From IMG/VR virus record IMGVR_UViG_3300048858_000027, positions 16,944-80,943 of that record: DNA of 64,000 nucleotides. One strand, written 5' to 3'. Each line of letters opens with the position of its first letter. Position 1 is the stretch's first letter. A program made the translations under genes and the position numbers. The stretch is from a virus (Duplodnaviria; Caudoviricetes). Shown here one piece after another: positions 32,552 through 59,072 of the stretch. Under the pieces are notes generated by a model. That model saw nothing but the letters and a program-made list of their open reading frames with translations, was not told the DNA's origin and ran no database searches.

Positions 32552-32563
32552 TTCCTATCGGAG
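32552..32563 (-). promoter_or_regulatory. SD-hairpin variant (TCC-GATA-GGA) before ParB-like gene
   Basis: - strand CTCCGATAGGAACATCCC-ATG. Confidence 0.45.
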
Positions 32564-32616
32564 TGCCCGGAATGTGTCCGGGATGAGCTAAAGGGTGAAG
32601 AGGGATTTAGTATTAG

Positions 32617-32626
32617 TGAGGGTTCA
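32617..32626. promoter_or_regulatory. TGA-N4-TCA box (TGAGGGTTCA)
   Basis: One mismatch to TGAAGGTTCA, in gap upstream of ParB-like gene. Confidence 0.45.
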
Positions 32627-32908
32627 AAATAGCTTTTTAGTCTCGATTAGCTCCATGAGTGCGAGCGTCAGAGCGTCGGTCGTTCGACGCCCATGAGGCT
32701 CCTCGGGGAGCTTGCTGAGGTCAGGGCGTAAGTGTCTGATATCAAATATAAAGAGCTGGGTGCCGCTGCTGTCGGTAAACTGTGGATTGGTTGTCAGGAT
32801 AAATGTCTCGGGTTGCGCTATATCGTCATCCTCGTAACAGCGAAAGACTTTTACGCCCTGGTAGTCGAGTATCAGCTCAGGCTCCATGTAGACCTGGGCA
32901 AACGGCAT
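32624..32908 (-). CDS. Hypothetical protein
   Basis: 94 aa from ATG 32908; lower GC than flanks. Confidence 0.6.
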   Translation of the reverse strand: MPFAQVYMEPELILDYQGVKVFRCYEDDDIAQPETFILTTNPQFTDSSGTQLFIFDIRHLRPDLSKLPEEPHGRRTTDALTLALMELIETKKLF

Positions 32909-33548
32909 GATCGTCCTCGTCCTCCTCCTCGGTTTCGGGGTCCTCGTCCTCCTCCTCGGGCTCGTAGGTTTCCTCCCAACGAGCCCTCTGAAAGAGCATC
33001 CGGTAGGTGATCTCATCGGTGAGCCATTCGTCTGTCATCACTCGGTCAAACCCGACGAGCCAAACGTAGAGCTTACGAAGTTCTTCGAGAGTGAAGGGAT
33101 CGAGCGGATCGCTGTCAGGGTAATCGGGGTCGGGATAGAGGTGCAGGTCTCGCCCGTCCGGTAGTTTCTTCCCCTCGAAACGGACGAGCGTATAGGTATC
33201 GCCTCGTCTATCCGACTCCAGTTCGTAGTCGATGTCTTCACCTGGGTAGCTGGTCCATTCCTTACGGATGAAATTCCAGATGTCCTGCCACTCGCAGTTC
33301 TCGACCTCATAGTTCAAGTCTATGACATATTGCTCCCAAACCTTGTCGAGCTTGGGATCAAGCGGCTCCTCGAACTTCCCGTGCTTGCGCTCGTAGTCCT
33401 CGCGGTCGTCCGGGTAGCAATTCTGAGGGATACTCCACTCGAAGGGGTTGTTACCTCGCGCCTTGATCAGCTCGATGAGCTGCTGGCGATCGTCGCAGAG
33501 TGCGACTTGCACACTCGCGACGATCTCAGGATTTACATCCTCGTCCAT
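32877..33548 (-). CDS. Highly acidic hypothetical protein
   Basis: 223 aa, very Asp/Glu-rich, ends YEPEEEDEDPETEEEDEDD; lower GC. Confidence 0.7.
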   Translation of the reverse strand: MDEDVNPEIVASVQVALCDDRQQLIELIKARGNNPFEWSIPQNCYPDDREDYERKHGKFEEPLDPKLDKVWEQYVIDLNYEVENCEWQDIWNFIRKEWTSYPGEDIDYELESDRRGDTYTLVRFEGKKLPDGRDLHLYPDPDYPDSDPLDPFTLEELRKLYVWLVGFDRVMTDEWLTDEITYRMLFQRARWEETYEPEEEDEDPETEEEDEDDHAVCPGLHGA

Positions 33549-33549
33549 C

Positions 33550-34806
33550 TCAGCCCACCTTGATGTGAATCGTTTCAGCCCATGCCGGGCCTTTCTGCTG
33601 CGTCGTCGAGATGCAGAGCACCGGATAGGGCGGTGGTTCCTTGGGGAAGATGATCATCATGTCCGAGATGACGATCGCACAGGCAGGTTGGATCCCCTGC
33701 TCCTCGATCAGCTCGAAGGCTGGCCGGAAGTCGCTTCCGCCACCCCCTGTGAACCGCGGCTCGAAGGGCTCACCCTGCTCGAAGCTTTGGATCTCCGTCG
33801 CGTGGGCGTCACAGGAGATGAAGTGGGCTCGCTCAGGAAACATATCCTCGACGATATATTTCTGCTCAGCAAATGCCTGGCTCAGCTCGTCCTCGCCCAT
33901 CGAGCCGGAGGTGTCGGTGATCAATGCGAACTCGCCTGTGCCTTCCCGCAGGATGCCGGGCAGGTAGATCCCCTGCCAGATGAAGCGGCGGTTCGGCCGC
34001 GCCCAGGTTCGGTCGGTCTTCTGGGTCTGCGATACGAACTGGCGGAGGACGTTCTTCCAATCGACCTGCGGCTCACAGACATCCTCGACCAGACGATCCA
34101 TCCAACCGGGGGTGGTGCCTTGGTTCTTCATCCGCTGGGCCATGTGCGCCTGGCGGATCGCGATCTTCATCTCGTGCTCGTGGTGAGCGCGCTCGGCACC
34201 AGTGAGGGGCGCGTCTTGCACGGCACCCCAGCCGTCACCCGTCTCAGGGCTGCCAGCAGAGCCGTGGGAGGGGTCCTTGCCAGCCTGGCCCGGAGACTGT
34301 CCTGGAGACTGCTCAGGCTGCCCCTGGTCGTCCCCCTGCCCCTGCTGGGACTGGTCGCTCTGACCACCTTGCTGTGGCTTCTTGCCGCCGCCGTTCTGCT
34401 CCTCCTGCTGCAGCTTGTCGTAGATAACCTCGGTGGCCATGTCCTTGAATTGAGGCATGTCAACGCCGCCCTTCGGGAGAGCGAATTTCGCTTCCTTCAG
34501 GATGGCGTTGATCGCCGCGTCGGCCGCGATGTTGAACCGCTTTGGCTCGCGGTGGGCGCGGCGCAGGTGGTGCAGGTTCGCGACGTGCAGGATCTCGTGA
34601 GCGTAGACGCCGATCACCTCGTCCAGAGAGCACTTCTCGACGAACTCGGCGCACCAATAGAGATGCACCCCGTCCGTCGCCATGGTTCCGCTCGGGATCT
34701 CGATGGGCTTCAGGCGGAGGGCCAGGCTGCCGAAGAAGGGCTGGTGCATCAGGAGCTGCATCCGTGCCTTCAGCAGCTTCTGGGGAGGTGTCAGCTTTAC
34801 GTTCAT
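33550..34806 (-). CDS. DUF2201-like metallopeptidase + vWA protein
   Basis: MATDG, AHEILHV (HExxH), NIAADAAIN, Gln/Gly-rich linker, DTSGSM MIDAS, GGGGSDF, ISD. Confidence 0.9.
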   Translation of the reverse strand: MNVKLTPPQKLLKARMQLLMHQPFFGSLALRLKPIEIPSGTMATDGVHLYWCAEFVEKCSLDEVIGVYAHEILHVANLHHLRRAHREPKRFNIAADAAINAILKEAKFALPKGGVDMPQFKDMATEVIYDKLQQEEQNGGGKKPQQGGQSDQSQQGQGDDQGQPEQSPGQSPGQAGKDPSHGSAGSPETGDGWGAVQDAPLTGAERAHHEHEMKIAIRQAHMAQRMKNQGTTPGWMDRLVEDVCEPQVDWKNVLRQFVSQTQKTDRTWARPNRRFIWQGIYLPGILREGTGEFALITDTSGSMGEDELSQAFAEQKYIVEDMFPERAHFISCDAHATEIQSFEQGEPFEPRFTGGGGSDFRPAFELIEEQGIQPACAIVISDMMIIFPKEPPPYPVLCISTTQQKGPAWAETIHIKVG

Positions 34807-34812
34807 CGCGAT

Positions 34813-34828
34813 GATCCTTTTACGGATT
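34813..34828 (-). promoter_or_regulatory. SD-hairpin (AATCC-GTAAAA-GGATC)
   Basis: 6 nt before ATG 34806. Confidence 0.7.
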
Positions 34829-35032
34829 GGCGTTCTTGGCGGCGGCTGCGTCGAGCTGGTCCGCGAAGCCCAAGAACTGGGACCATAAGGCGGGGCGCTT
34901 AGCGGCCAGGGTGTGGATCTCAGCAGCCGTCAGTGGGTTGTCGCTGGCCATCACAGCCATGAACTGCTGCTGAACCTCAGACGTGTTCCTGCTCGCGGCA
35001 TAGAACATCTGAGCCTGGGTCATCTGGGACAT
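34820..35032 (-). CDS. Hypothetical protein
   Basis: 70 aa, preceded by SD-hairpin. Confidence 0.7.
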   Translation of the reverse strand: MSQMTQAQMFYAASRNTSEVQQQFMAVMASDNPLTAAEIHTLAAKRPALWSQFLGFADQLDAAAAKNANP

Positions 35033-35038
35033 TGGGAT

Positions 35039-35053
35039 GATCCTCTATGGATT
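35039..35053 (-). promoter_or_regulatory. SD-hairpin (AATCC-ATAGA-GGATC)
   Basis: 6 nt before ATG 35032; preceded by GC-rich hairpin 35057-35078. Confidence 0.7.
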
Positions 35054-35083
35054 GAGGGGCGGGCCGTGGCCCGCCCCAGAGCC

Positions 35084-35299
35084 TCAGCTTTTCCCGCTGC
35101 TGGCGAGAGATGTTCCATCGTCCAAAGAGACTTCCTCCAGGATCCAGTTCGAGATGAACATCTCGACCCCTCCCGCCGCCTGGATCTGATCCGCTACGTG
35201 TGCAGCGATGGTCTCTTTGGTGATAGGACCGGCGTAGACGCCGAGAGTGATGGAGAACTCCGCCTGGACAGCCAGGCGGATGTTGAGGTCGTCCATCAC
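35084..35299 (-). CDS. Hypothetical protein
   Basis: 71 aa, coupled to upstream stop. Confidence 0.55.
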   Translation of the reverse strand: MMDDLNIRLAVQAEFSITLGVYAGPITKETIAAHVADQIQAAGGVEMFISNWILEEVSLDDGTSLASSGKS

Positions 35300-36198
35300 A
35301 GGAACATCGCCGCCTTGTCGTAGATGGCCTTCGCCTTCGCCGCGGTATCCTGGCGGAAGCCCTCGTCGGCGCGCAGCGCCGAGGCGTCGTGGCGGGTCAG
35401 CTCGCGCAGCTCCAGCACCAGGGCGGCCAGCTCGGGGTCGTTGGTGATGTTCAGGGTCGGCAGCAGATCCACCAGGTCCTTGATGTTCTCGACCAGGCTG
35501 TCCCGGAAGATGCCGTCCACCACCTTGCCCGTCTCAGGGTCCACGCGGTAGGCCGTCAGCTTATCGACCATCTTCTTGGTCTTGTCCGCGATCCGACCCC
35601 AGACCTCCTTCATGGCTTCGGTCACAGCCTGCTCCACCCGCAGATCCGTCGAGCGGCGCAGCTCCGCCATCTCGGTCTCCGCGATGTTCAGGAACCAGTT
35701 GTTCGACACCGGCAGGGGGCTGGCGTTGATCTGGAAGGTGAACCGCTCGCGCAGCTTAGAGACGGGCGGATAGTCCTCATGGTCGAACATCCCGCCCAAC
35801 CGTGCCTTGGCCTGGTCGATGAGCTGCGGATATGCCTGCAGGAACTCCTCGACCGCGGCCTCGAACTGGCTGGTGAAGGCCCGCATCTTCTCCATGTAGG
35901 TGAAATAACCGTCCACCGAGAGCAAGCGGGCGCCCTCGTCGGTCCAGGGCAGCGTCACATCATAGTGGTGGGCGCGAGCGGCCGAGGCGATCTTCTTGAT
36001 CCGCTCCAGCGCCTGCTTGCCGATGATCTTCTTCTGGTAGCGCCCGCTATCGGTCACGTCCGCATTGTGCGTCTCCGCGATCTCCTCGGAGAAGCGGCGA
36101 TCCGTCTTCTCTCCCGTGAAGGTGCGGATGTTCAGGGAGATGAGCAGCACGCGGTTGGCGAGGGTGGTGCTGTCCGACATGGTGGAATCCAGCGGCAT
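35296..36198 (-). CDS. DUF3150-like protein
   Basis: LISLNIRTFTGEKTD, TLPW..EGARLL, YPQLI..A...LG.MF...DYP, FRDSLVENI...LNITNDPEL; between AAA and DUF2201 genes. Confidence 0.7.
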   Translation of the reverse strand: MPLDSTMSDSTTLANRVLLISLNIRTFTGEKTDRRFSEEIAETHNADVTDSGRYQKKIIGKQALERIKKIASAARAHHYDVTLPWTDEGARLLSVDGYFTYMEKMRAFTSQFEAAVEEFLQAYPQLIDQAKARLGGMFDHEDYPPVSKLRERFTFQINASPLPVSNNWFLNIAETEMAELRRSTDLRVEQAVTEAMKEVWGRIADKTKKMVDKLTAYRVDPETGKVVDGIFRDSLVENIKDLVDLLPTLNITNDPELAALVLELRELTRHDASALRADEGFRQDTAAKAKAIYDKAAMFL

Positions 36199-36204
36199 GG
36201 GTTT

Positions 36205-36240
36205 GATCCTGACGGATTGAGTGATTGAGTGGTTGAAATC
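36205..36240 (-). promoter_or_regulatory. SD-hairpin (AATCC-GTCA-GGATC) with upstream TCAATCAC repeats
   Basis: - strand GATTTCAACCACTCAATCACTCAATCCGTCAGGATC-6 nt-ATG. Confidence 0.75.
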
Positions 36241-37255
36241 AGACCATCATGGGCGCGTTGACCGTCGCCCATTTGATGCCATTGCGGCATTGCATGATGG
36301 ACACGTTCTTCCGCTGGGCGTCCTTCACCGCCATCACGGCGAAGTCCTGCGGAATACGGCCCATGTAGGTGAAGAAGTTCTCGCGAGTGGCGTTGGTCAC
36401 ACGCATCGAGAGCGCTGTGCAGAGCGCATACATGATGGCGACCTCATCGGTCGGGACCGGCGCCTTCTCCGGGTTCTTCAGCACCTCGTCGATGTCGGGC
36501 ATCCGGCTGATCAGCCGCAGGAAGCCCGTGAACTCGGTCGCGGCCCCCTCACCCACTGCACCGGAGACCATCTCGAACTGGAGGCCGAGATGTTCCTGCG
36601 GCAGCTTCAGCAGGCCAGGCAGCATGTCGGAAACAGCTTCCCAGGAGCGCGGCGTCGGGAAGCTGCGCTCCTTCGGGTTGAACTGGTCCAGCAGGTGGGG
36701 ACGGTGCTTGATGAAGGCGATTACCTCCTCGCGGACACCGAAGGGGATGGCGAAGTTGGCGACCCACTCCTCCATGTCCGTCTCGACATCCATGAACACC
36801 ACGCGGTTGCGGATGTGGCTCGGGAGGTCTCGGGCGCCGGCTCGGTCGGAGAGGCGGTTGGAGGCGGCGACGATGCGGTGCTGCGGCGCCAGCTTGAAGG
36901 TGTGAGCACCGCGCAGGGTGCCATCCAGGATGAACTCGGCCGCGGCGTTGTAGACCATGCGCTCCGCGTCAGCGATCTCGTCCAGGAAGACGATCGTGGG
37001 GGCGTCGTTCTCACCGGGCAGGGTGTCCGGGAGGGCGTAGCTCATCCGGTGGTTGTTCACCTCCGGCATACCGCCGACTTCCGAGGCGTCCATCTGTCCC
37101 AGGCGCCAGGTGATCAGGCGCATTGCTCGCTCATTGGCGATCTGCTCGACCGTGCTGGACTTGCCGACACCCGGCGAGGACTGGATCAGCGGCACGCGCT
37201 GGCGCGGCAGGCTGAAGAAGATGTCGAGGGCGGGCTTGAGCTGCGAGAGCTTCAT
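36239..37255 (-). CDS. MoxR/dynein-related AAA+ ATPase
   Basis: SSPGVGKS Walker A, VFLDE Walker B, VAASNR sensor I, HIRNR Arg finger, FPTPRSWE. Confidence 0.92.
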   Translation of the reverse strand: MKLSQLKPALDIFFSLPRQRVPLIQSSPGVGKSSTVEQIANERAMRLITWRLGQMDASEVGGMPEVNNHRMSYALPDTLPGENDAPTIVFLDEIADAERMVYNAAAEFILDGTLRGAHTFKLAPQHRIVAASNRLSDRAGARDLPSHIRNRVVFMDVETDMEEWVANFAIPFGVREEVIAFIKHRPHLLDQFNPKERSFPTPRSWEAVSDMLPGLLKLPQEHLGLQFEMVSGAVGEGAATEFTGFLRLISRMPDIDEVLKNPEKAPVPTDEVAIMYALCTALSMRVTNATRENFFTYMGRIPQDFAVMAVKDAQRKNVSIMQCRNGIKWATVNAPMMV

Positions 37256-37262
37256 AGTCGTT

Positions 37263-37277
37263 GATCCTTTGCGGATT
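37263..37277 (-). promoter_or_regulatory. SD-hairpin (AATCC-GCAAA-GGATC)
   Basis: 7 nt before ATG 37255. Confidence 0.75.
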
Positions 37278-37818
37278 AAGCGAGAGCTTCCTGGACCAGT
37301 CGGGCCAGGGCCTTGGGTGGTAGGATGGAGGACAGGTATCCACCCAGCGTGTCACCGGGTTCGGGCACATCGTCTGGGTAGGGGAGCTGATAGACCCTGC
37401 AGTATTCGTATAGGCGGAGGGACTGACTTCGGATGCGGGTCATGGTGAGGTGCCGCATACTGGTGTCTCTGGACCTGCCCAGAGCCACAGCCAGGGACTT
37501 CATCTCCTCCTTCATGTGGAGGACTTGGTGCCCTGGGGTGATGTCGAGGCTGGGGACGTAGAAGAAGTCCATCCCCCTGTCGATGTCGATCTTCTTGAGC
37601 GACTGATTGAACTTCACCGTCGCCGGAAGATCGTTGTCACGCAGGGTGATCTGAACCGGCGTTCCGTTGGGAGCCCATTCGAGGCGAGCGATGCGCTTGT
37701 CACCGAAATACATCGCCCAGCGATCCACGGATGTCTTGCTGGCCACGCCACCTCGATACTTCGTGGCCCTGGCGCAGAACATGGACCGCCATGTGTCGAG
37801 GAGGAGTTCGACGCTCAT
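37276..37818 (-). CDS. Hypothetical protein (paralogue of 37815-38318)
   Basis: Shares VPxLDx, HQ, YC..xxLxxP and C-terminal YL...L..KxL..LVQxxLA. Confidence 0.7.
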   Translation of the reverse strand: MSVELLLDTWRSMFCARATKYRGGVASKTSVDRWAMYFGDKRIARLEWAPNGTPVQITLRDNDLPATVKFNQSLKKIDIDRGMDFFYVPSLDITPGHQVLHMKEEMKSLAVALGRSRDTSMRHLTMTRIRSQSLRLYEYCRVYQLPYPDDVPEPGDTLGGYLSSILPPKALARLVQEALA

Positions 37819-39524: not shown

Positions 39525-39538
39525 TTCCTTTGCAGGAA
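39525..39538 (-). promoter_or_regulatory. SD-hairpin compensatory variant (TTCCT-GCAA-AGGAA)
   Basis: Both arms changed A-T to T-A, pairing and GNRA loop kept; 6 nt before ATG 39518. Confidence 0.7.
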
Positions 39539-40190: not shown

Positions 40191-40249
40191 TTCCTGTTGT
40201 GGATGTGAGATGATCCCCGAAGGGATTGGGTCGGTGATCCGTGAGGATT
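40191..40249 (-). promoter_or_regulatory. Three tandem hairpins in terB leader
   Basis: - strand AATCC-TCAC-GGATC, AATCCC-TTCG-GGGATC, then ATCC-ACAACA-GGAAC carrying the SD. Confidence 0.65.
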
Positions 40250-44226: not shown

Positions 44227-44238
44227 TCCCTACCGGGA
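44227..44238 (-). promoter_or_regulatory. SD-hairpin variant (TCCC-GGTA-GGGA)
   Basis: - strand CTCCCGGTAGGGAACATCCGCGAC-ATG 44215. Confidence 0.5.
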
Positions 44239-45071: not shown

Positions 45072-45263
45072 TCAGATCCGCGGTGGATTTAGCTCGGCGC
45101 CCAGGATCTCGATTTCCCGGTCGTGGAAGGGCTCATCGTGGCCCGTCAGCATCCACTGACCATCCTGGCGCTTGGCCACCTCGGGTGGCCAGAGCCCGTG
45201 CTTCAGCCTGATCCAGTAGAAGCCTCCCTCCTTCGGCGGAGGGGCAGCGATCTTCCGCGGCAT
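45072..45263 (-). CDS. Hypothetical protein
   Basis: PKEGGFYWIRL...WMLTG pattern, 63 aa. Confidence 0.65.
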   Translation of the reverse strand: MPRKIAAPPPKEGGFYWIRLKHGLWPPEVAKRQDGQWMLTGHDEPFHDREIEILGAELNPPRI

Positions 45264-45697: not shown

Positions 45698-46329
45698 ACC
45701 ACCGCCACCTTACCCATGCGGGCCTTTGCTCCGCTCCAGATTGCACTGATCTCGGTCGGAGTGGGACCCTTTGGTTCCATTTCCGGCGCCGTTTGCCCGA
45801 CGCTCATAGCGCGCTTGTAGTCCTCGCGGTCAGTGAGGAACTGCTTGCACACAGGGCCGTGGGTCTGGAGCAGCTCGACAGCCTGCTGGTTCGCACGGGC
45901 GCGGTGCTTTGTCCGCGTAACGACGAACTGCATCGGCTTCCCAGCATCCTCCACCAGACGAATGGTCACGCCGATGGCGCGGAGGTCGTTGGGGCTGGGC
46001 TGGACCGGGATGATCACCAGGTCGGAGAGGCGGATCGCCTCGGCCACGAGCGGGTCGATCGAGGGTGGCGTGTCGATGATCACCGTCTTGTAGCCCAGGC
46101 CCCGGAGCTGGGTCAGCGTGGCTGCTAGATCGGCGTGGCGGACGAAGGCGGGGGTCTGAGCCTCCCGCACATCCCACCACTTCGTCAGGGACTGCATGGA
46201 GTCCAGGTCGATCATGGCCACCGGGCCGTCGAGCCGTTCAGCCTCGACGGCGAGGTGTGTCGCCAGGGTGGTTTTGCCCGCGCCTCCCTTGCGGGAGGCC
46301 AGCGTGATGGTCTGCACGGAGTGCTCCAT
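45694..46329 (-). CDS. parA: ParA partition ATPase (short, type Ib)
   Basis: RKGGAGKTT deviant Walker A, DLDSMQS, IIDTPPS, IPVQPSPNDL; no N-terminal HTH. Confidence 0.92.
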   Translation of the reverse strand: MEHSVQTITLASRKGGAGKTTLATHLAVEAERLDGPVAMIDLDSMQSLTKWWDVREAQTPAFVRHADLAATLTQLRGLGYKTVIIDTPPSIDPLVAEAIRLSDLVIIPVQPSPNDLRAIGVTIRLVEDAGKPMQFVVTRTKHRARANQQAVELLQTHGPVCKQFLTDREDYKRAMSVGQTAPEMEPKGPTPTEISAIWSGAKARMGKVAVV

Positions 46330-46378
46330 TACCGAATGCTCGGTAATGATTGCATGAGTGATTGAACGCGGTCAATCA
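46327..46378. promoter_or_regulatory. parA operator region: two inverted repeats
   Basis: CATTACCGA-ATGC-TCGGTAATG covering the start codon and TGATTGA-ACGCGG-TCAATCA. Confidence 0.65.
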
Positions 46379-46884: not shown

Positions 46885-46918
46885 GATCCTCGCGGATTGA
46901 GTGATTGAAGTCAGTCAG
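46885..46918 (-). promoter_or_regulatory. SD-hairpin (AATCC-GCGA-GGATC) with TCAATCAC repeats
   Basis: - strand CTGACTGACTTCAATCACTCAATCCGCGAGGATC-6 nt-ATG. Confidence 0.75.
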
Positions 46919-49010: not shown

Positions 49011-49032
49011 GATCCAGTGATGGATTGAGTGA
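49011..49032 (-). promoter_or_regulatory. SD-hairpin (AATCCA-TCAC-TGGATC)
   Basis: 10 nt before ATG 49000; identical to 49252 copy. Confidence 0.7.
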
Positions 49033-49251: not shown

Positions 49252-49272
49252 GATCCAGTGATGGATTGATTG
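49252..49272 (-). promoter_or_regulatory. SD-hairpin (AATCCA-TCAC-TGGATC) with TCAATCAATCC
   Basis: 6 nt before ATG 49245. Confidence 0.7.
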
Positions 49273-49279
49273 ATCGAAG

Positions 49280-49734: not shown

Positions 49735-49760
49735 GATCCACTGAAGGATTGAATGATTGA
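49735..49760 (-). promoter_or_regulatory. SD-hairpin (AATCC-TTCAGT-GGATC) with TCAATCATTCAATCC
   Basis: 6 nt before ATG 49728. Confidence 0.7.
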
Positions 49761-49766
49761 AGGAAA

Positions 49767-50028: not shown

Positions 50029-50385
50029 TTACCAGTCATGGGTGGGCAGCGTTTCGATGGTGTCGGCATCGGCGTCGAGGTTGATCCACCAGCAGCCGTG
50101 CTCGCGGGCTAGGGCCTGCAGGGCGAAGAAGGCATCACTGATGCCGTCTTCCTTTGCATTAGCCTCGAACTCCAGGCGGTCGGCATCCTCGCTGCCATCG
50201 GCAGACCCTTCCAGGCGGACGTGGACGAACCAACCGTAGAGATGCTTGATCACCCGATAGGGTGGTGCCAGGGCAGTCTCATCGTCAGATGCGGCTGCCC
50301 AAGCATCCAAGAGCTCGGTGTCGGCCTTGGTGATGTGGCAGGTGCTGCAGTCGAGGAAGCTGTGGATGAAGGGGGGCTTGCTCAT
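50029..50385 (-). CDS. DUF5983-like hypothetical protein
   Basis: FLDCSTCHIT, YGWFV, WINLDADA...LPTHDW. Confidence 0.7.
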   Translation of the reverse strand: MSKPPFIHSFLDCSTCHITKADTELLDAWAAASDDETALAPPYRVIKHLYGWFVHVRLEGSADGSEDADRLEFEANAKEDGISDAFFALQALAREHGCWWINLDADADTIETLPTHDW

Positions 50386-52560: not shown

Positions 52561-52945
52561 TCTCATGAATCCTGCCTAGGATGACCCTCGCCAGTTCCGC
52601 CCGATCACGCAGGGACAGGATGTAGTCGAGGTTCGGGTTCTCGCCGTGGACGTGGACCAGACGATCCGCGATCCAGTTCAGGAAGTCGGGCAGCTTGGTC
52701 GGCCCGCCCTCCAGCAGCAGGAGCAGGGACATGCGCTCGTCCCACACCCGGTCCTCTGGACGATCCAGATATGCCAGGCTGTCGCAGGCGGGGCAGCGGC
52801 CCGCCGGAGATGGGCATCCGGGGTTGAGGGAACATCCGCCAATGATTCCGAGATCTTCCAGCGGACCCTTCCAGTCGCAGTTCCCGCAGGCGCAGGGGGT
52901 GCTGTCGTCGGTCGGGTAGGCGATGTGGGCGGAGTAGGTGCTCAT
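52553..52945 (-). CDS. Zn-finger hypothetical protein
   Basis: CGNCDW...PAGRCPACDSLAY; PDFLNWIADRLVHVHGE. Confidence 0.7.
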   Translation of the reverse strand: MSTYSAHIAYPTDDSTPCACGNCDWKGPLEDLGIIGGCSLNPGCPSPAGRCPACDSLAYLDRPEDRVWDERMSLLLLLEGGPTKLPDFLNWIADRLVHVHGENPNLDYILSLRDRAELARVILGRIHENG

Positions 52946-54158: not shown

Positions 54159-54712
54159 GCCAGCAGCTCCCCCAGGATCTGATGACCCAGACCCGACTCG
54201 CCCCGCTCGTGCTCCATGAAGGCGAGGGCGTAGAGTTCGTGGTCGTCCTTCAGCACCACGGTGATGGTGTCGTTCCAGGAAGAACGCAGCATACCCCTCC
54301 AGCGAGTGTTCCAGGCCCGCTGGAATGCCTTGCGCACATCAATCCGTATCTCGGTGTGGAAATCGGCGTGAGGCGCGTGGTCCTGTGCGATCCGAGCCAG
54401 CTTCAGAGCGAACTCACCATGCGTGCCGAGCATGGCGGCGGGGTTACGCAGGAAGTCAGCCGGGCTGCGCCCGCTGTCGTTCACGGCGGCCAGCATCGCT
54501 GCCTCGAAGCGCGTGATGCCGAGGACACGGGCGACTGCCTCCTCGGCTTCCTCCTGGGTGGTGCGCATCAGCTCATCATCCGAGAACCCGGCGACATGCA
54601 GAACATCACCCTGCGCACAGTGAGTGCATGTGTTTTCGTCGAAGAGGGTGTAGGTGGCGAAGCGAGGCGCGTCGGGGCCGGTCCAGCGCGCGATGATGTC
54701 CTGGATATTCAC
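54155..54712 (-). CDS. Hypothetical protein (paralogue of 54709-55251)
   Basis: IARWTGPDAPRFATYTLFD...CAQGDVLHVAG...VLGITRFE...VND. Confidence 0.8.
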   Translation of the reverse strand: MNIQDIIARWTGPDAPRFATYTLFDENTCTHCAQGDVLHVAGFSDDELMRTTQEEAEEAVARVLGITRFEAAMLAAVNDSGRSPADFLRNPAAMLGTHGEFALKLARIAQDHAPHADFHTEIRIDVRKAFQRAWNTRWRGMLRSSWNDTITVVLKDDHELYALAFMEHERGESGLGHQILGELLA

Positions 54713-55251
54713 AGGTGCGCCTCCAGAACCCGGTGCCCATAGCCGGGCAGGTCTGTCACGGCTTCACGCAGGGTGAGGGCGTAGATGATGGGGTAGTTGT
54801 CGTGACGGAGTGCCCGCCACATGCATTCCTCGACCTCAGTGGCGTAGGGCAGGTACGCGAAACGAGCCTGCGCCGTGATCGGGTCGTAGTCGAGGAGCGG
54901 GTAGGTCTCCGCGAGATGCGCCAGCTTCAGTGCGAAGGGATAGTGCGGGCCGCACAGCTTGATCGGGTCGGCCAGGAACTCCGCGGCCGAGGTGGTGCCG
55001 ATGTGATCATTGACCCGCCGGATCATGATGCTCTCGAAGATGGTGATGCCGAGGATGTTGGCCACTTCCTGATCTGCCCAGCGCTGCTGGGCCTTGTTCA
55101 GAAAGTCCTTCGAGAGCCCGGCCAGATGCAAGATGTCGCCCTGCGCGCAGAAGCAGTCGCTGTTCGGATCGTAGAGCGTGCATTGCGCGAGGCGGGGCGC
55201 GTCGGGGGAGGTCCAGCGCTCGATGAGAGCGGGGATGGTGATGGTGGTCAT
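54709..55251 (-). CDS. Hypothetical protein (paralogue of 54155-54712)
   Basis: IERWTSPDAPRLAQCTLYD...CAQGDILHLAG...ILGITIFE...VND. Confidence 0.8.
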   Translation of the reverse strand: MTTITIPALIERWTSPDAPRLAQCTLYDPNSDCFCAQGDILHLAGLSKDFLNKAQQRWADQEVANILGITIFESIMIRRVNDHIGTTSAAEFLADPIKLCGPHYPFALKLAHLAETYPLLDYDPITAQARFAYLPYATEVEECMWRALRHDNYPIIYALTLREAVTDLPGYGHRVLEAHL

Positions 55252-55260
55252 GGAATGGAT

Positions 55261-55274
55261 GATCCTTGCGGATT
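55261..55274 (-). promoter_or_regulatory. SD-hairpin (AATCC-GCAA-GGATC)
   Basis: 9 nt before ATG 55251. Confidence 0.75.
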
Positions 55275-55283
55275 AGAGGGGTG

Positions 55284-55454
55284 TCAGAACCAGGCTGCGA
55301 GGTTGTCGATGTCCGCACCCAAAGCCTGAAGGATTCGCGATTGTTCGCGGACCCTCCTGAGCAAGTAGGCCAGCAGAACCTGCATCTCGTCCTGGGTCAG
55401 AGGTATGCCCTCATCGAGAGCATGGATTGCCTCGTTAATGGTGTGAGCGTCCAT
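55284..55454 (-). CDS. Small hypothetical protein
   Basis: 56 aa, TGATG coupling. Confidence 0.55.
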   Translation of the reverse strand: MDAHTINEAIHALDEGIPLTQDEMQVLLAYLLRRVREQSRILQALGADIDNLAAWF

Positions 55455-55642
55455 CAGAACCAGTCCCAGGTCTTCTTCAGATCGTCCCACCAGCGCGCCA
55501 GCCAGGTGCCCGAATGACCAGGCCAGCCCATGAACCGCGCCACGCTGTCGGGGGTCTCACCCGAAGGGACGTTGTTGAATTGGAGGAGGTGGTTCATGCG
55601 ACCGTTGCGCGACTGCCAACGGTAGACGTGTTGGTAGGACAT
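55454..55642 (-). CDS. Small Trp-rich hypothetical protein
   Basis: 62 aa. Confidence 0.55.
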   Translation of the reverse strand: MSYQHVYRWQSRNGRMNHLLQFNNVPSGETPDSVARFMGWPGHSGTWLARWWDDLKKTWDWF

Positions 55643-55645
55643 GGA

Positions 55646-55891
55646 TCAGACGCTCAGCTTGATGCTGATGGTGGTGCCGGCGGGGACGATCTGGATCTGG
55701 TGGTGATGCCCGTTTTGGGTATCGAAGGTGGTCTCGGGGTCCATCAGGCTCACGAAACCATCGTAGGTCCGCATCACGATGTGACCCTTGTAGGTTTGGG
55801 AGATGATCTCCCCGACCTGGCCTACCTTGAGATCCTCCAAGGTGGGTGGGTTGCGGGAAGGGAGAGCGGGGGTGACGGTGAGGTGGTGCAT
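55646..55891 (-). CDS. Hypothetical protein
   Basis: 81 aa, preceded by SD-hairpin. Confidence 0.7.
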   Translation of the reverse strand: MHHLTVTPALPSRNPPTLEDLKVGQVGEIISQTYKGHIVMRTYDGFVSLMDPETTFDTQNGHHHQIQIVPAGTTISIKLSV

Positions 55892-55900
55892 GGGGCAGGT

Positions 55901-55914
55901 GATCCTTGCGGATT
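55901..55914 (-). promoter_or_regulatory. SD-hairpin (AATCC-GCAA-GGATC)
   Basis: 9 nt before ATG 55891. Confidence 0.75.
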
Positions 55915-56137
55915 AGGAAGCGGTGAGGCCCGCGGTGCGTTCGATGCGGCGCAGGAGGTTGATGCTGCAAGCCATGTGGTGCATGGCGAGGCGGCGATGC
56001 TCCTTGCCCCCGGCCCACGCCGGCACCTTGTTGGCCTCGCGCAGATCGCTTGAGGCCCGGACGACCAGCATCCAGATGCTGTCGGAGCAGTAGCGGGGGA
56101 GGCGGCGGGCACGCTGGGCCAGGGTGAGCTTGAGCAT
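55913..56137 (-). CDS. Basic hypothetical protein
   Basis: 74 aa, preceded by SD-hairpin. Confidence 0.7.
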   Translation of the reverse strand: MLKLTLAQRARRLPRYCSDSIWMLVVRASSDLREANKVPAWAGGKEHRRLAMHHMACSINLLRRIERTAGLTAS

Positions 56138-56140
56138 AGG

Positions 56141-56154
56141 GATCCTCTCGGATT
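56141..56154 (-). promoter_or_regulatory. SD-hairpin (AATCC-GAGA-GGATC)
   Basis: 3 nt before ATG 56137; GNRA loop. Confidence 0.7.
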
Positions 56155-56182
56155 GGGTGGCAAGTATTCGTGTGGACGAATA

Positions 56183-56383
56183 CTAGGTGTTTACTGTTGG
56201 TGTGGTGAGGCGGACGGCTTCCCAGACGACCTGGAACAGCACCTGGTTGGTGGGCTCGATGCCATCCTCGATCTGACGGAGGAGCAGTCGCAGCTCACGG
56301 AGGATGAGGGGTGTGAGGGTCGTGGAGGGCCTCCAGGGTTCAGGGGGTGGTGGGGATACCGAGCCAGGCTTTGATGGCGTCAC
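56183..56383 (-). CDS. Small hypothetical protein
   Basis: 66 aa, start uncertain. Confidence 0.45.
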   Translation of the reverse strand: MTPSKPGSVSPPPPEPWRPSTTLTPLILRELRLLLRQIEDGIEPTNQVLFQVVWEAVRLTTPTVNT

Positions 56384-57080
56384 GCCAGGGTTTGTCGGTG
56401 TCCAGGCGGAAGTCTGGATCGGAGAGGACTTCCCGGATGACGGCGGGGGGCAGGCCGACCTCCTCCCACTCGGTGAACAGGGCCGGGATGTCGGGCTCAG
56501 GATGCCTCAGCGTGTAGCTGAGGATGTCGTCCCGCACGTCAGCAGCCGTGACGCCGCTGGTGTCGATGGTGGGGGGCTGGAGGGCCGCGAAAGGCACCGG
56601 AGAGTGGACACAGAAGGGGTTGCAGCAGCGCCCGTGGTCCTGGTGCCGGTAGTGGCACCGGATCAGGCTGATGCGCTGCTTGCCGACCACCTTGGCGCCG
56701 TTCTCGAAGCGGGTGGTGGAGGTGGTGCGCAGGTTGAGGTCAGGGAACTCGTGGCCCCGAAAGTGGATCACCAGCGCGCGGTAGAGGGAGAACACACGAC
56801 GATCCATCCACACGCTGGGCTCGATCTCCCGCGGCCGAGGACGATAGGTGGTCATGTGCGGAGACGGCACGATGTTGCCGTCACGACGCATCCGAGCATT
56901 CCGCATGTAGGGCCTGGGAGCGCCATTGGGCAGCAGGCGCTTGGACGCGGCACCGCCCTTAGCATTCAAGACGTGCCGCGGGGCGGTCCAGAACCAGTGC
57001 TCGTCGCGGTTGGTGGATGAGAGCCTCGCCAACCAGGACGGCGGCGGGATGACCGGAGTGGGGATCGTGGGGAAGATCAT
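56340..57080 (-). CDS. Degenerate HNH / His-Me finger-like protein
   Basis: HWFWT...YRALVIHFRG...CHYRHQDHGRCCNPFCV resembles the phage HNH W.WTG...HR.AY...H.C.N..CCNP.HL scaffold with the last His missing. Confidence 0.5.
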   Translation of the reverse strand: MIFPTIPTPVIPPPSWLARLSSTNRDEHWFWTAPRHVLNAKGGAASKRLLPNGAPRPYMRNARMRRDGNIVPSPHMTTYRPRPREIEPSVWMDRRVFSLYRALVIHFRGHEFPDLNLRTTSTTRFENGAKVVGKQRISLIRCHYRHQDHGRCCNPFCVHSPVPFAALQPPTIDTSGVTAADVRDDILSYTLRHPEPDIPALFTEWEEVGLPPAVIREVLSDPDFRLDTDKPWRDAIKAWLGIPTTP

Positions 57081-57089
57081 GGGACAGGT

Positions 57090-57630
57090 GATGCCTGTGG
57101 ATTGGTTGGAGGTTCAATCGGGAAGTAGGTTCTTGAAGGTTCAGAAATAAGATTGGGCGCGGGAGGGTGCCGCGAGGGTGTCTGAAGACCCTATTTCTGA
57201 CACACCCTAACTCAGCCCTTAGAGACCAGTAATACTGAACCTTCAAAACTGTGAAATAGGGTTATTGAATACTCATTATTCTTGGTTCCGAGCTAGCTAT
57301 TTAGGTTGTTACAGAAGTAGTATAACAAACAATCATTAATCCCTTCAGGATTGGAGGGAGAGGATTAATGATTGCTCGTTAAACCACCAATTCCTGGCTG
57401 AATGTGCCGAAATACGGTTATTGATGGTTCAATATTGGCCAAAACCGCGATTTTGGGTTTATGAATGGTCAATATAAGCTGATTACTGACCATTCAGAAA
57501 GCGATGTGATTATCGACCAGTCGATATAGCCCTTATTCTGACCATTCAAAAATGAGCTTGAATATCGAATGGTCGAAATAAGGGCTATCTTGAAGGATCA
57601 AGATAGCCCTCTGATTACTGAAGGTTCAGT
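57090..57630. promoter_or_regulatory. AT-rich master control region / candidate origin with nine TGA-N4-TCA boxes
   Basis: Boxes at 57134, 57236, 57266, 57422, 57462, 57487, 57539, 57591, 57619; direct repeats GAAATASGGTTATTGA (57253, 57409) and GATTACTGA (57481, 57613); several inverted repeats; roughly 40% GC by eye. Confidence 0.8.
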
Positions 57631-57809
57631 CTCTCCAGCACCGCATCGACGGTCTTCTCGACCTTGCCAACCCGTTCATATCGGGTCTCGGTGATCTGAC
57701 GGCGGAGACCGAACCGCTCCACTCCCTTGGGGTAGAGGATCTGGGTGACGATGTGGCCGTTGTGGTGGTGGATCTCGTTGACAGAGATCGGACGCTGAGG
57801 ATTGCGCAT
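57615..57809 (-). CDS. Small basic hypothetical protein
   Basis: 64 aa ending inside the control region. Confidence 0.6.
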   Translation of the reverse strand: MRNPQRPISVNEIHHHNGHIVTQILYPKGVERFGLRRQITETRYERVGKVEKTVDAVLERLNLQ

Positions 57810-57877
57810 TTAGAGTATCCGTAAGTAGTTTCATGAACAGGATGAGGGCCATTCGGCCCTCATAAGTAAACCTGTTC

Positions 57878-58432
57878 TTACCTCATCCTACGGCCTCCCC
57901 TTACCGGAGCCTGATGGGCATGGAGCCACACCATCCGCCGCTCGAACTGAGGAGCCCCTTCGGCTTCCCGGAACATCTGACGCACTCGTTCCCTGTTTGC
58001 CATCTCCTCCAGGGCAACGGTGAGGGCTTCCTGGGCCTTGCTCTCCCGCTTCATGGCCTGCAGCTCGTCATCCACCTCACCCTTGGTGGGGTTCTTGATC
58101 CCGTAGCTCAGCAGCCGCTCCGCAGCCTTGACCCGCCTCGGGTCCGGGCTGTCCGACGCTCTGCCCCGGTCCACCGGGTCACGCTTCTCCTTCACGGAGA
58201 GGATGGTCTCCATCTTCTCCTTGACCACCTCACGGTCATACTGAGCCCGGCGCTGCTCGGGCTTCAGGCCATCCGCATAGGACGGACCCTTCAGACGCTT
58301 GCACTCCCTCTCGGGCACGTCCGCCAGCACACCCACTGGCAGCTCGGGACGCAGGCGCACGCTCGCACCACGCATCGGGGTGCGAAACTCACGCAGATTG
58401 ATGCCCTGGATGGAAGACATGGAATAGGCCAC
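57878..58432 (-). CDS. Hypothetical protein
   Basis: 184 aa, charged; GTG preceded by SD-hairpin. Confidence 0.7.
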   Translation of the reverse strand: MAYSMSSIQGINLREFRTPMRGASVRLRPELPVGVLADVPERECKRLKGPSYADGLKPEQRRAQYDREVVKEKMETILSVKEKRDPVDRGRASDSPDPRRVKAAERLLSYGIKNPTKGEVDDELQAMKRESKAQEALTVALEEMANRERVRQMFREAEGAPQFERRMVWLHAHQAPVRGGRRMR

Positions 58433-58437
58433 AGGAT

Positions 58438-58471
58438 GATCCCCTAGGGATTGAGTGGGTGATTGATTGAG
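58438..58471 (-). promoter_or_regulatory. SD-hairpin (AATCCC-TAG-GGGATC) with CTCAATCAATCACCCACTCAATCC
   Basis: 5 nt before GTG 58432. Confidence 0.7.
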
Positions 58472-58810
58472 TTAGACGCGCCCGCGGACGACCAGCGCCC
58501 CCGCCTGCCTCTGGACCACGCGCTGGTTCACGCGCGCCCGCTCCCTCTCGGTCAGCACCACACGCTGACGCCAGTAGCTCTTGCGCACAAACCACGCACT
58601 ATGCGCCAGGTCGAACAGGGACGCGCTGGCGAGACCACCCTCGGCACAGCAATCCAACTGGTCCATCACACGAATGGACAGCCGCAGGGGCGTGTTGATC
58701 ATGCGCCGCTCATGGACCTTGCGCAGCTCGATGCGCATCAAGCGGTAGACCAGGCGCCAGTTCTCCCGCGCGCCCGCCTTATTCTGATGCTTAATCCTGG
58801 AGATAAACAT
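58472..58810 (-). CDS. Arg-rich basic hypothetical protein
   Basis: 112 aa, TGATG coupling. Confidence 0.6.
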   Translation of the reverse strand: MFISRIKHQNKAGARENWRLVYRLMRIELRKVHERRMINTPLRLSIRVMDQLDCCAEGGLASASLFDLAHSAWFVRKSYWRQRVVLTERERARVNQRVVQRQAGALVVRGRV

Positions 58811-59052
58811 CAGTGCATCACCTTCGCGGTCAGAGCCTCGCGATCGGCGCCGATCTTCGCCATCAGGTGGTCGAAGACCTCCTTCAGCGCCAGCGCGTTC
58901 CTGAAGGCCGCCTGCCACTCGGGCGTGCCCGGCATCAGGTCATTCAGCGACTTCATCGCCTCGATAGCCTGGAGATATGGCTCCCGCGCCACCTCCGGCA
59001 GACTCAGCGCCAGAACGTCATCAGGGATTCGTTGCTCGATCACTTTGGGCAT
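58810..59052 (-). CDS. Hypothetical protein
   Basis: 80 aa from ATG 59052, preceded by SD-hairpin. Confidence 0.7.
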   Translation of the reverse strand: MPKVIEQRIPDDVLALSLPEVAREPYLQAIEAMKSLNDLMPGTPEWQAAFRNALALKEVFDHLMAKIGADREALTAKVMH

Positions 59053-59058
59053 CAGGAT

Positions 59059-59072
59059 GATCCTTGCGGATA
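59059..59072 (-). promoter_or_regulatory. SD-hairpin (TATCC-GCAA-GGATC)
   Basis: 6 nt before ATG 59052. Confidence 0.7.

Follow-up and report, generated by a model that had tools for sequence, protein, structure and literature searches.

Results

Hairpins ahead of leftward genes

The window (the whole stretch of DNA analysed, 64,000 nt) is part of the 80,943-bp genome (~81 kb; 62 % GC) of an uncultured phage, G000, which is a Seuss/JWF-like siphovirus. Relatives of this phage infect Caulobacter and Achromobacter, and the hosts here are of the Gram-negative type. Short hairpins are located at the ribosome sites of its leftward genes (Table 1), the exact form reading AATCC-loop-GGATC on the minus strand (GATCC-N3-6-GGATT in the plus-strand text). 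This form occurs 18 times in the window versus an average of 1.01, and at most 4, in dinucleotide shuffles; all 18 copies are on the minus strand and 16 end 2–10 nt 5' of an ATG or GTG. The full 80,943-bp genome contains 18 copies of the forward pattern and none of the reverse pattern or of a backwards control, the first 16.9 kb, outside the window, holding 0 copies. With variants included the family amounts to ~28 copies before early genes. The family described in an earlier note, made from the sequence alone, is thus present, its coordinates are all right, and its variants at 39525, 44227, 52569 and 32552 are as described; to these can be added a further exact copy at 45075 and the other members marked in Table 1. 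A covariance model gave 23 minus-strand matches versus one plus-strand match at E < 0.1; formal covariation within the genome is weak. Among 27 plus-strand late genes, before which the earlier note had not seen the family, any TCC-N3-9-GGA is found at three ribosome sites and the family consensus at none. These data support a strand-specific family tied to the start codons of leftward early/replication genes.

Table 1. Members of the hairpin family in window coordinates (†, not in the earlier note)
Feature	Position	Strand	Start codon	Remarks
Class I arms extended inwards, 7-bp stem, 3-nt loop	15447..15463†	-		Usual linker upstream; downstream start uncertain
Class I-like site, full 5-bp complement	16575..16586†	-	ATG 16572	
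Class II ribosome-site hairpin	26348..26359†	-	ATG 26342	5'-3' exonuclease gene; directly after terminator-like stem
Class II site, 3 pairs, GAUA loop	32552..32563	-	ATG 32545	ParB-like gene
Class I ribosome-site hairpin	34814..34827	-	ATG 34806	Metallopeptidase/vWA gene; upstream TAA stop in loop; L180 ortholog also with hairpin site
Class I ribosome-site hairpin	35040..35052	-	ATG 35032	GC-rich stem-loop directly upstream
Class I ribosome-site hairpin	36206..36217	-	ATG 36198	DUF3150-like gene; L180 ortholog also with hairpin site
Class I ribosome-site hairpin	37264..37276	-	ATG 37255	MoxR-like ATPase gene
Class I ribosome-site hairpin, GAAA loop	38325..38336	-	ATG 38318	TAA stop overlaps 5' flank
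Class II ribosome-site hairpin, 5 bp, GCAA loop	39525..39538	-	ATG 39518	Both arms changed
Weak class II-like site, 3 pairs	40191..40204†	-	TTG 40183	
Second of tandem pair, 5-bp stem, UUCG loop	40213..40226	-		28 nt 5' of TTG
First of tandem pair	40237..40248	-		52 nt 5' of TTG, not directly at start
Class II variant	44227..44238	-	ATG 44215	Second pair changed to C-G
Class I hairpin	45076..45088†	-	ATG 45060	10 nt 5' of start; strong SD GAGGAGGG between hairpin and ATG
Class I ribosome-site hairpin, GCGA loop	46886..46897	-	ATG 46878	32-nt junction with full linker consensus
Class I, 5-bp stem with inner A-U pair	49012..49025	-	ATG 49000	
Class I, 5-bp stem with inner A-U pair	49253..49266	-	ATG 49245	
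Class I ribosome-site hairpin, 6-nt loop	49736..49749	-	ATG 49728	
Class I ribosome-site hairpin, GUGA loop	49938..49949	-	ATG 49934	
Class I variant, 5-bp stem	52569..52582	-	ATG 52566	Extra inner U-A pair
Class I ribosome-site hairpin, GCAA loop	53615..53626	-	ATG 53605	
Class I ribosome-site hairpin, GCAA loop	55262..55273	-	ATG 55251	
Class I ribosome-site hairpin, GCAA loop	55902..55913	-	ATG 55891	Upstream TAA stop overlaps 5' flank
Class I ribosome-site hairpin, GAGA loop	56142..56153	-	ATG 56137	
Degenerate copy	57090	-		Confirmed as degenerate
Orphan copy	57339..57351†	-		AT-rich 534-bp intergenic region; no gene start behind
Class I ribosome-site hairpin, 5-bp stem	58439..58451	-	GTG 58432	
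Class I ribosome-site hairpin, 4-bp stem, GCAA loop	59060..59071	-	ATG 59052	Differs only in base before arm
Variant, second pair swapped on both sides (AACC/GGTT)	60120..60132†	-	ATG 60113	

Cassette and predicted fold

The hairpin is part of a cassette that marks the non-overlapping gene junctions within the long leftward operons of the early/replication arm and is rare at overlapping junctions and at late genes. From the upstream stop codon it runs through a G-poor linker of 0–21 nt (often YTTCAAYCACTC), a hairpin of 4–7 bp with the GGA core of the Shine-Dalgarno sequence (SD) in its 3' arm, and a short G-poor spacer, often CAUC, to the ATG. Its flanks contain 10–11.5 % G against 30 % in the background (p ~1e-12 to 1e-15). 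Of 21 junctions of 8–60 nt, 15 carry TCC-N3-9-GGA at the ribosome site, versus 4 of 39 overlapping junctions, and a comparison of gaps of at least 8 nt with smaller ones gave a Fisher p of 9e-5. No excess of sigma-70-like promoters or of terminators was found in the region, and the cassettes are therefore internal operon junctions. The statement that GGA is always in the 3' arm applies to all copies serving as SD and fails at three that hold no working SD, namely the tandem pair (40213–40248) and the copy at 45075, which does not mask the SD because a separate one sits between hairpin and ATG.

Loop length varies from 3 to 9 nt and, as the earlier note had it, loops are mostly GNRA-type (8 of 13 four-base loops versus a background of 3 %; binomial p ~1e-9, or 6e-6 for distinct loops only). 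Extra inner pairs (A-U, U-A or C-G) are present at five of the seven sites with 6-nt spacing, and one stem reaches 7 bp. Because the loop is variable and enriched in GNRA and UUCG, some changes are compensatory, and hairpins are kept at orthologous genes, a single-stranded (RNA) hairpin is supported as a better explanation than a duplex DNA protein site, as had been proposed; to call the compensatory pairs established was an overstatement, since within this genome two double changes are confined to the outer pair, and of the four core pairs two are invariant. Covariation across genomes rests on hand-picked sites. The stems are weak, with a computed stability of ~-3.7 kcal/mol at 37 °C that rises to between -5 and -7 at 15–25 °C, and they are not more stable than the best chance hairpin near any start (mean ~-2.9 kcal/mol on both strands). 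The arms, with the unpaired A that precedes and the CA that follows them, show much greater uniformity in this genome than a purely structural element would require, and each lineage has a different 3' flank at orthologous genes (GGATCA in G000, GGAACAT in the syntenic metagenome relative L180), which fits a lineage-specific reader or concerted evolution.

Relatives and candidate readers

Related cassettes recur in a distant IMG/VR relative (G005; ~13), in the syntenic contig (7–9 within 20 kb, some of them at orthologs and with altered arms), in Achromobacter phage JWF (~5) and possibly in Caulobacter phage Seuss, where the version has fixed spacing, forms a 15-bp palindrome and stands at the head of early operons. 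Four other relatives with the same core genes are without the cassette. A motif-independent detector (a 4-bp stem over the SD, G-poor flanks and a real ORF behind) gave reverse/forward counts of 20/2 in G000, 21/2 in G005, 7/0 in JWF and 6/0 in Seuss, and 0 to 2 in G001–G003. The ParB ribosome-site hairpin has three versions with different arms (G000, L180 and L197), and for vWA and DUF3150 there are two versions each (G000 and L180), again with changed arms. The genes behind the hairpins in G000, G005 and Seuss are non-homologous to each other. Two sequence classes coexist in G000: class II is the form found in L180 at shared core genes and class I has the arms of G005. A post-stop linker word recurs in G000, L180, L197 and JWF, and GATC shows a 2–3-fold excess in every relative, whether or not it has the hairpin family.

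Thirty small proteins, 20 of them from the early 50–64 kb block, were scanned in full against Pfam, and no RNA-binding, RegA-like, CsrA-like, Com-like or RNase domain was found among them. Apart from one DUF5983 match and one zinc-ribbon match below threshold, the 20 early proteins are ORFans. Only two proteins track the hairpin-bearing genomes, a dNMP kinase and a probable AAA+/clamp-loader-like replication protein, and their co-occurrence may reflect phylogeny only.

Discussion

Hairpins that sequester an SD lead to translational coupling or repression at the MS2 coat/replicase operator, in the T4 lysozyme early transcript and at T4 RegA targets. Here too a local stem would pair with the SD, and initiation would need opening by an upstream ribosome or a protein; each of those precedents, however, has a sequence of its own, at a single site or, for RegA, at unstructured AU-rich sites, whereas one standard cassette, much weaker and with no known protein partner, is reused ~28 times in this phage. 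Lambda boxB, the target of N, is likewise a short stem with a GNRA-like loop on an early phage transcript, but a genome has only ~2 copies of it, which follow the early promoters, are accompanied by boxA and lie away from ribosome sites. The ~28 copies at start codons, with no boxA-like partner, lend no support to the antitermination role once suggested for the hairpins, and the proteins tested included none resembling N. The promoter-early stem-loop (PeSL) cassettes of T4-type phages are mobile, occur repeatedly beside ORFans of the variable early region and have been proposed as agents of modular shuffling. They resemble the present family as short repeated regulatory cassettes with a stem-loop flanking ORFan genes; PeSL carry a sigma-70 early promoter, which would not fit into the short junctions of this phage, where promoter-like sequences are not in excess.

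The closest known analogues, and the best of the precedents named in the earlier note, are the start-associated sequences (SAS/ESAS) of actinobacteriophages, which are present in ten to twenty copies in Cluster K mycobacteriophages (Pope et al. 2011, PMC3203893) and Cluster EF Microbacterium phages (PMC7302621) and whose function and reader, host or phage, RNA or protein, are unknown. These sequences and the present hairpins are both unusually conserved oriented repeats at the ribosome-site position, a few nucleotides before mostly ATG starts, limited to the non-structural arm, preceding genes of different families and conserved across subclusters in lineage-specific versions. Unlike SAS, a fixed-length linear word with a 13-bp consensus to which the present motif has no similarity, the SD here forms part of the 3' arm of a stem whose GNRA-type loop is variable, and the hosts are of the Gram-negative type; the authors of ESAS found little support for a hairpin (PMC3203893, PMC7302621).

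Our working hypothesis, held tentatively and at somewhat less than an even chance, is that the motif is a portable intercistronic translation-initiation cassette acting in cis in the mRNA. Flanks unable to pair would leave the 5' arm as the sole partner of the SD, so that the ribosome site would sit in one defined, weak, local fold. Against this stand the weak covariation, the chance-level stability of the stems, the three copies with no working SD, the relatives that manage without the cassette and the uniformity of arms and flanks, and only ~4–6 copies have an upstream stop so near that a ribosome terminating there could melt the stem.

A phage-specific regulator is a live rival to such a cis-acting module. 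The hairpins would then be operators of a trans-acting, sequence-specific RNA-binding factor (phage or host global regulator) that represses, activates or cleaves ~28 cistrons together, with a logic resembling T4 RegA/RegB or MS2 coat protein and its operator. A near-invariant stem with conserved unpaired flanking bases in >20 copies points this way, as does the fact that the version is homogeneous within a lineage and particular to it, orthologous genes included. The hairpin alone is too weak to block initiation at 37 °C, and a stabilizing protein would therefore give it a purpose; confinement to the early/replication arm would fit a temporal switch. Early ORFans could hide such a factor, but the domain scan lends nothing to the earlier proposal that a phage factor acts on the hairpins by binding, opening or cleaving them, and the two proteins that track the hairpins are those named above. 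Moreover, G000 and G005 have the same arms but no early accessory protein in common, and two classes in one genome are unpredicted by a single reader. We regard this explanation as possible, though on balance unlikely; for the suggested silencing of genes in a plasmid prophage, nothing was found in support.

It is rather improbable, in our judgement, that the cassettes are primarily module boundaries, short conserved linkers at which related phages could exchange or gain accessory genes by recombination, as proposed for the PeSL cassettes, while the ribosome-site function keeps every inserted gene expressed. The small ORFan genes that they flank, the non-homologous genes behind them in different phages, the two coexisting classes with their separate affinities, the common linker word, and the tandem pair and orphan copy with no genes behind them would all suit that explanation. 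Yet the common stretch is only ~25–35 nt, broken by a variable loop and short for homologous exchange, paralogous gene pairs or duplicated cassette-plus-gene units were looked for and none found, and recombination leaves GNRA enrichment and G-poor flanks unexplained; nor would it exclude a translational role, with which it is compatible. We consider it very improbable that the motif acts as duplex DNA, be it an operator, a stoperator-like block, a nick or methylation site or a special-polymerase promoter. The element is a strictly oriented, interrupted inverted repeat with GATC, the Seuss palindrome has fixed spacing, and the stoperators of Cluster A mycobacteriophages, ~30 oriented intergenic DNA sites, are a precedent. 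However, an arm spacing of 3–9 nt is not tolerable for a dimeric DNA binder, junctions down to 13–21 nt with unconserved upstream coding sequence leave no room for a promoter, position is fixed to the start codon and not to any transcription signal, and GATC is in excess regardless of the family. A contrast with Cluster A stoperators has also been drawn in the literature (PMC3203893).

The hairpin family, with its anatomy and its specificity for strand and junction, is real and recurrent in related phages; its reader and purpose we infer. For the cis-acting cassette that we favour, we infer that the fold forms in vivo, gates initiation and needs no dedicated factor. Such a weak local fold, opened by binding of the 30S subunit or melted by a ribosome terminating on the upstream gene, would set a uniform, moderate and context-independent initiation rate, and the cassette, which precedes unrelated genes in different phages, would travel with its genes.

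Copies of the hairpin and the structure of the cassette

Read on the minus strand, AATCC-N3-6-GGATC occurs 18 times in the window, against a mean of 1.01 and a maximum of 4 in dinucleotide shuffles. The whole 80,943-bp genome, a record with direct terminal repeats, gave 18 forward matches, none in reverse, none for a backwards control and none in its first 17 kb, and chance origin is ruled out by the shuffle comparison together with these one-strand counts. Sixteen of the 18 exact copies end 2–10 nt 5' of the ATG or GTG start of a minus-strand ORF. Exceptions are of two kinds: a tandem pair lies 28–52 nt 5' of a TTG start, and one copy has a separate strong Shine–Dalgarno (SD) sequence between hairpin and ATG. 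With variants the family comes to about 28 copies in a single orientation. The earlier note had described some 20 such hairpins, and its coordinates, including those of a near-copy, a degenerate copy and four named variants, were all confirmed. A covariance model trained on the 13 copies with four-base loops also recovered the family, giving 24 matches in the window at E < 0.1, 23 of them on the minus strand; in relatives, this model did not transfer except to two sites in G005, an IMG/VR virus. Rfam gave no match at the curated gathering score in the 64-kb window, thermometers, leaders and riboswitches included. The hairpin family is real and well defined.

The hairpin belongs to an intercistronic cassette, which runs from the upstream stop codon through a linker, an unpaired A, the stem-loop, and CA with a spacer to the start codon. 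The linker (0–21 nt) is G-poor and often YTTCAAYCACTC. The 4-bp stem, AUCC/GGAU, is sometimes extended inwards by A-U, U-A or C-G, with one 7-bp case, and its 3' arm holds the GGA of the SD; the loop has 3–9 nt, with G first and A last in nearly all copies, and the CA that follows the stem leads into a G-poor spacer, often CAUC. Four copies have the upstream TAA stop overlapping the pre-stem A or lying in the loop. Two sequence classes are present in this one genome, class I (GGAUCA) with about 22 copies and class II ((U)UCC ... GGAACAU) with about five. G content is 11.5% in the 12 nt 5' of the stem and 10% in the 8 nt 3' of it, compared with a strand-wide 30% (p about 1e-12 to 1e-15). For the canonical hairpin the folding energy falls from about −3.7 kcal/mol at 37 °C to −5.3 at 25 °C and −6.6 at 15 °C.

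The motif YTTCAAYC, placed directly after the upstream stop codon, recurs in this genome, in the syntenic metagenome contigs L180 and L197 and in Achromobacter phage JWF, and is a second conserved element of the junction. One further site combines the usual linker with another 8-bp hairpin (about −9 kcal/mol), after which come an unmasked GGAG and a GTG start; the linker-plus-hairpin architecture is preserved there with an unrelated stem.

Positions of cassette copies and of other features mentioned in the text (G000, the phage genome under study)
Feature	Genome	Position	Strand	Remarks
Class II copy	G000	26348	-	added member; arms altered on both sides
Class II copy	G000	32552		
Class II copy	G000	39525		arms altered on both sides
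Class II copy	G000	40191	-	added member
Class II copy	G000	44227		arms altered on both sides
Added member	G000	15447	-	7-bp stem
Added member	G000	16575	-	
Added member	G000	60120	-	second pair swapped on both sides
Orphan copy	G000	57339	-	
Near-copy	G000	59059		
Degenerate copy	G000	57090		
Tandem pair	G000	40213-40248		
Copy with separate SD	G000	45076-45088		
YTTCAAYC linker	G000	36218-36238		
YTTCAAYC linker	G000	46898-46910		
YTTCAAYC linker	G000	49267-49279		
YTTCAAYC linker	G000	49750-49766		
YTTCAAYC linker	L180	3953-3966		
YTTCAAYC linker	L197	4630-4649		
Linker with unrelated 8-bp hairpin	G000	46318-46375	-	GTG at 46317
Putative SbcD-type partner	G000	20091-21104		
AAA+/clamp-loader-like protein (low confidence)	G000	28936-29787	-	
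HTH protein and small ORFs	G000	29837-31760		
MoxR/DUF3150/vWA trio	G000	33550-37255	-	
DUF5983 protein	G000	50029-50385	-	
Intrinsic terminator	G000	60490-60516	-	
15-bp palindromes	Seuss (L150)	about 68950, 76135, 82500, 84120, 84918		

Evidence for a probable RNA structure

Comparison of the copies suggests that the element is likely to be an RNA hairpin. Loop length varies among the copies, eight of the 13 four-base loops are of the GNRA type, against a background of 3% (p about 1e-9, or 6e-6 when only distinct loops are counted), and the inner extra pairs are Watson–Crick in five of the seven sites with 6-nt spacing. Four variants have arms altered on both sides, and hairpins are kept at orthologous sites in relatives. 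In the 28 rows from this genome alone, two of the four core pairs are invariant and the outer pair shows only two double changes and four mismatches. Across genomes, at 26 four-base-loop sites chosen by eye, the outer pair is AU in 14, UA in seven and unpaired in five, and the second pair UA in 25 and CG in one; the covariation score, likewise from sites chosen by eye, was 0.189 versus 0.061 ± 0.020 in shuffles (0/500). Folding energy failed to separate early from late genes (mean best hairpin about −2.9 kcal/mol on both strands), and stability alone is therefore no evidence; a comparably stable stem is possible in any 40 nt of this GC-rich genome. A site in duplex DNA is unlikely, because the spacing of the arms is variable and the distance to the start codon is fixed.

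Genomic context

The structural genes form a plus-strand arm, from position 1 to about 31 kb of the genome, from which the family is absent. The minus-strand arm encodes a primase, a family A DNA polymerase, an SNF2 helicase, a ligase, ThyX, an SbcC-like protein with a putative SbcD-type partner, exonucleases, a ParB-like protein, a trio of MoxR, DUF3150 and vWA proteins, and many ORFans. Neither sigma-70-like promoters nor terminators are in excess between 24 and 64 kb, which places the cassettes inside long operons. When junctions were sorted by length, TCC-N3-9-GGA was found at the ribosome site in 15 of 21 junctions of 8–60 nt and in nine of 28 longer than 60 nt, but in only four of 39 overlapping or abutting junctions and only three of 27 late genes (gaps of at least 8 nt vs smaller gaps, Fisher p = 9e-5). 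The cassette is a mark of non-overlapping gene junctions; overlapping genes have ordinary GGAG or GAGG sites within the upstream gene.

Some other features of this arm were observed. All three genes of the conserved trio, which encode a MoxR-like AAA ATPase, a DUF3150-like protein and a metallopeptidase/vWA protein (DUF2201), are preceded by individual hairpin ribosome sites. L180 shares the DUF3150 and vWA genes, and its stretch stops before any MoxR gene. A strong intrinsic terminator (12-bp stem, T run) lies 3' of the primase gene and is separated from the next gene by a 265-bp gap of lower GC. One small early protein matches Pfam DUF5983 (E = 1e-24), the only clear family match among 20 early proteins scanned.

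Distribution among related phages

The polymerase places the phage among the Seuss/JWF-like siphoviruses of about 80 kb, with 43% identity to Caulobacter phage Seuss, 41% to JWF and 43–45% to five IMG/VR relatives (G001–G005). G005, a 78.8-kb genome whose shared core is about 40% identical at the protein level, has about 13 cassette copies on its early strand. Its unit opens with a stop codon and a 4–15 nt A/C-rich linker; the arms are again AUCC/GGAU, often with an outer U-A pair added, around a G...GGA loop, and 3 nt separate the hairpin from ATG. In JWF the copies number about five, and their arms are UUCC/GGAA. A 15-bp palindrome with 6-bp arms and a fixed 3-nt centre occurs five times in Seuss, covering or adjoining the SD of early genes, rIIA among them; the palindromes could be RNA hairpins or a repressor operator, the fixed spacing being the reason to consider a DNA operator. 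G001–G004 were found to lack the hairpin family. A motif-independent detector, which asked for an SD-like triplet covered by a 4-bp stem, flanks poor in G and a genuine ORF downstream, gave 20 reverse and two forward matches in the genome under study, 21 and two in G005, seven and none in JWF, six and none in Seuss (36–85 kb), 0–2 and 0–1 in G001–G003, and two and seven in G004; the arm sequences of the seven forward matches in G004 are assorted and do not form a family.

The search for contigs that encode homologs of the AAA+/clamp-loader-like protein found 39. Through a homolog of this protein the analysis reached L180, a closer, syntenic contig in which 20 kb contain 7–9 copies of class II type. 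Among them are hairpins at the DUF3150, vWA and ParB orthologs, whose counterparts in our phage also bear hairpins, and one at the helicase gene, where G005 has a hairpin and our phage has none. At the ParB ribosome site the hairpin is kept in three lineages with three different arm pairs. The hairpin-preceded genes are otherwise unrelated among our phage, G005 and Seuss. At the nucleotide level, the phage collection gave no match in either near or distant mode; an IMG/VR scan with a 14-base version of the motif gave single chance matches only (at most two copies per locus); the MoxR protein had no close viral relative; and in a scan of metagenomes the vWA protein matched distant homologs only (26–37% identity), none of them with hairpin sites. 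Ligase homologs L129–L131 (56–66% identity) were rejected as relatives, being without the motif and not syntenic, and generic counts of k-mers and of inverted-repeat words carried too much noise for families in relatives to be detected. GATC is over-represented 2–3 fold in the genome and its relatives (here 760 observed vs 279 expected) and GANTC is depleted (observed/expected 0.41 here, 0.03–0.72 in relatives); the GATC excess was rejected as a correlate of the family, as both biases are phage-group-wide, hairpins or not.

The AAA+/clamp-loader-like protein has no Pfam or PHROG match, and its tentative description comes from low-confidence structural neighbours in the Atlas. By tblastn it is present in G005, JWF and Seuss and not in G001–G004, which is the distribution of the hairpin family. 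Its gene always lies just before that of the SNF2 helicase; one homolog stands alone in a 5.1-Mb bacterial contig, surrounded by ABC-transporter genes. In L180, L197 and the contig P0127 a tyrosine integrase lies between the ParB-like gene and the counterpart of this gene; in our phage an HTH protein and small ORFs occupy the integrase slot, where no integrase was seen.

Discussion

The closest described analogues of the cassette are the start-associated sequences (SAS) of Cluster K mycobacteriophages and Cluster EF Microbacterium phages, of which 10–19 conserved, oriented copies lie a few nucleotides 5' of start codons in the non-structural half of the genome, with a 13-bp consensus that frames the SD with GGG...CCC (PMC3203893, PMC7302621). 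The present family likewise has many copies in one orientation close to start codons and is confined to the non-structural arm, and it belongs to this start-associated kind rather than to a new category. The SAS, however, are fixed linear words of another consensus in actinobacterial phages, whereas in the cassette the AUCC and GGAU arms enclose a loop of variable length, and no GGG/CCC frame is present. The earlier note had also offered antitermination as a reading. Lambda-type nut sites (boxA plus boxB) number one or two per genome, lie downstream of early promoters and work with an N-type protein, and were rejected for the present family on copy number and position at ribosome sites; no boxA-like partner is conserved beyond the linker, and no N-like domain was found in the proteins scanned. 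RNase III sites of the kind in T7 early mRNA need at least about 20 bp of double strand, and the stems here have 4–7 bp. CsrA/RsmA sites are short hairpins, commonly overlapping the SD, with GGA exposed in the loop, but here the GGA sits in the 3' arm; such sites may be present in G005, where the first of two GGA triplets lies inside the loop. A stoperator, a fixed-length asymmetric DNA word bound by repressor, does not accommodate arm spacings of 3 to 9 nt, and the junctions are too short for promoters. DNA-level readings of the motif as a whole are highly improbable.

Any explanation has to account for the restriction to non-overlapping early-arm junctions, the G-free flanks, the weak stem that covers the SD, the cassette's portability among unrelated genes, strong uniformity of sequence within a genome and lineage-specific versions. 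Our preferred reading, which we hold tentatively and at somewhat less than an even chance, is that the cassette is a cis-acting, self-insulating initiation module. The SD would be left with exactly one possible pairing partner, so that the same weak fold would form at every independently initiated cistron, whatever the neighbouring gene; opening of the fold would fall to the 30S subunit or, if the stop codon lies within a few nucleotides, to the terminating ribosome. Uniformity within the genome, together with lineage-specific flanks, is the main argument for a dedicated reader of the hairpins, which is possible but rather unlikely: none was found, no RNA-binding domain was seen in the 30 small proteins scanned in full, and phylogenetic profiling showed only a dNMP kinase and the AAA+/clamp-loader-like protein to co-occur with the family. 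It is doubtful, in particular, that one of the ORFan early proteins is an undescribed RNA-binding regulator, specific to its lineage, which uses the hairpins as operators and switches translation of about 28 non-overlapping early cistrons on or off as a block. Such a regulator would co-evolve with arms and flanks (GGAUCA here, GGAACAU in L180, GGAGGAUAU in G005). For a translational operator of the RegA or MS2-coat type, no cognate domain was found among the 30 small proteins, with about half of the minus-strand genes scanned, the early ones being mostly ORFans; to our knowledge no translational regulon of such a kind has been shown in a dsDNA phage outside T4 RegA. The two coexisting classes and the ORFan cargo would fit recombination linkers for module exchange, an improbable explanation in its own right, though such a role can be compatible with either translational reading.

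For actinobacteriophages, descriptions of start-associated repeats go back to 2011 but offer no mechanism. The present family combines SAS-like placement with a clear hairpin over the SD in a different group, the Seuss/JWF-like siphoviruses of proteobacteria, and related versions are found in two cultured phages, JWF and possibly Seuss. The Caulobacter host is highly tractable, and the question of a reader is therefore directly testable. If the cassette is a self-contained, context-independent ribosome site, it would be a natural design for insulated expression in GC-rich operons; a role as regulon operator would make it a new post-transcriptional switch in phage development, and a hidden regulator, if there is one, would be a likely key to the unexplained SAS of other phages.
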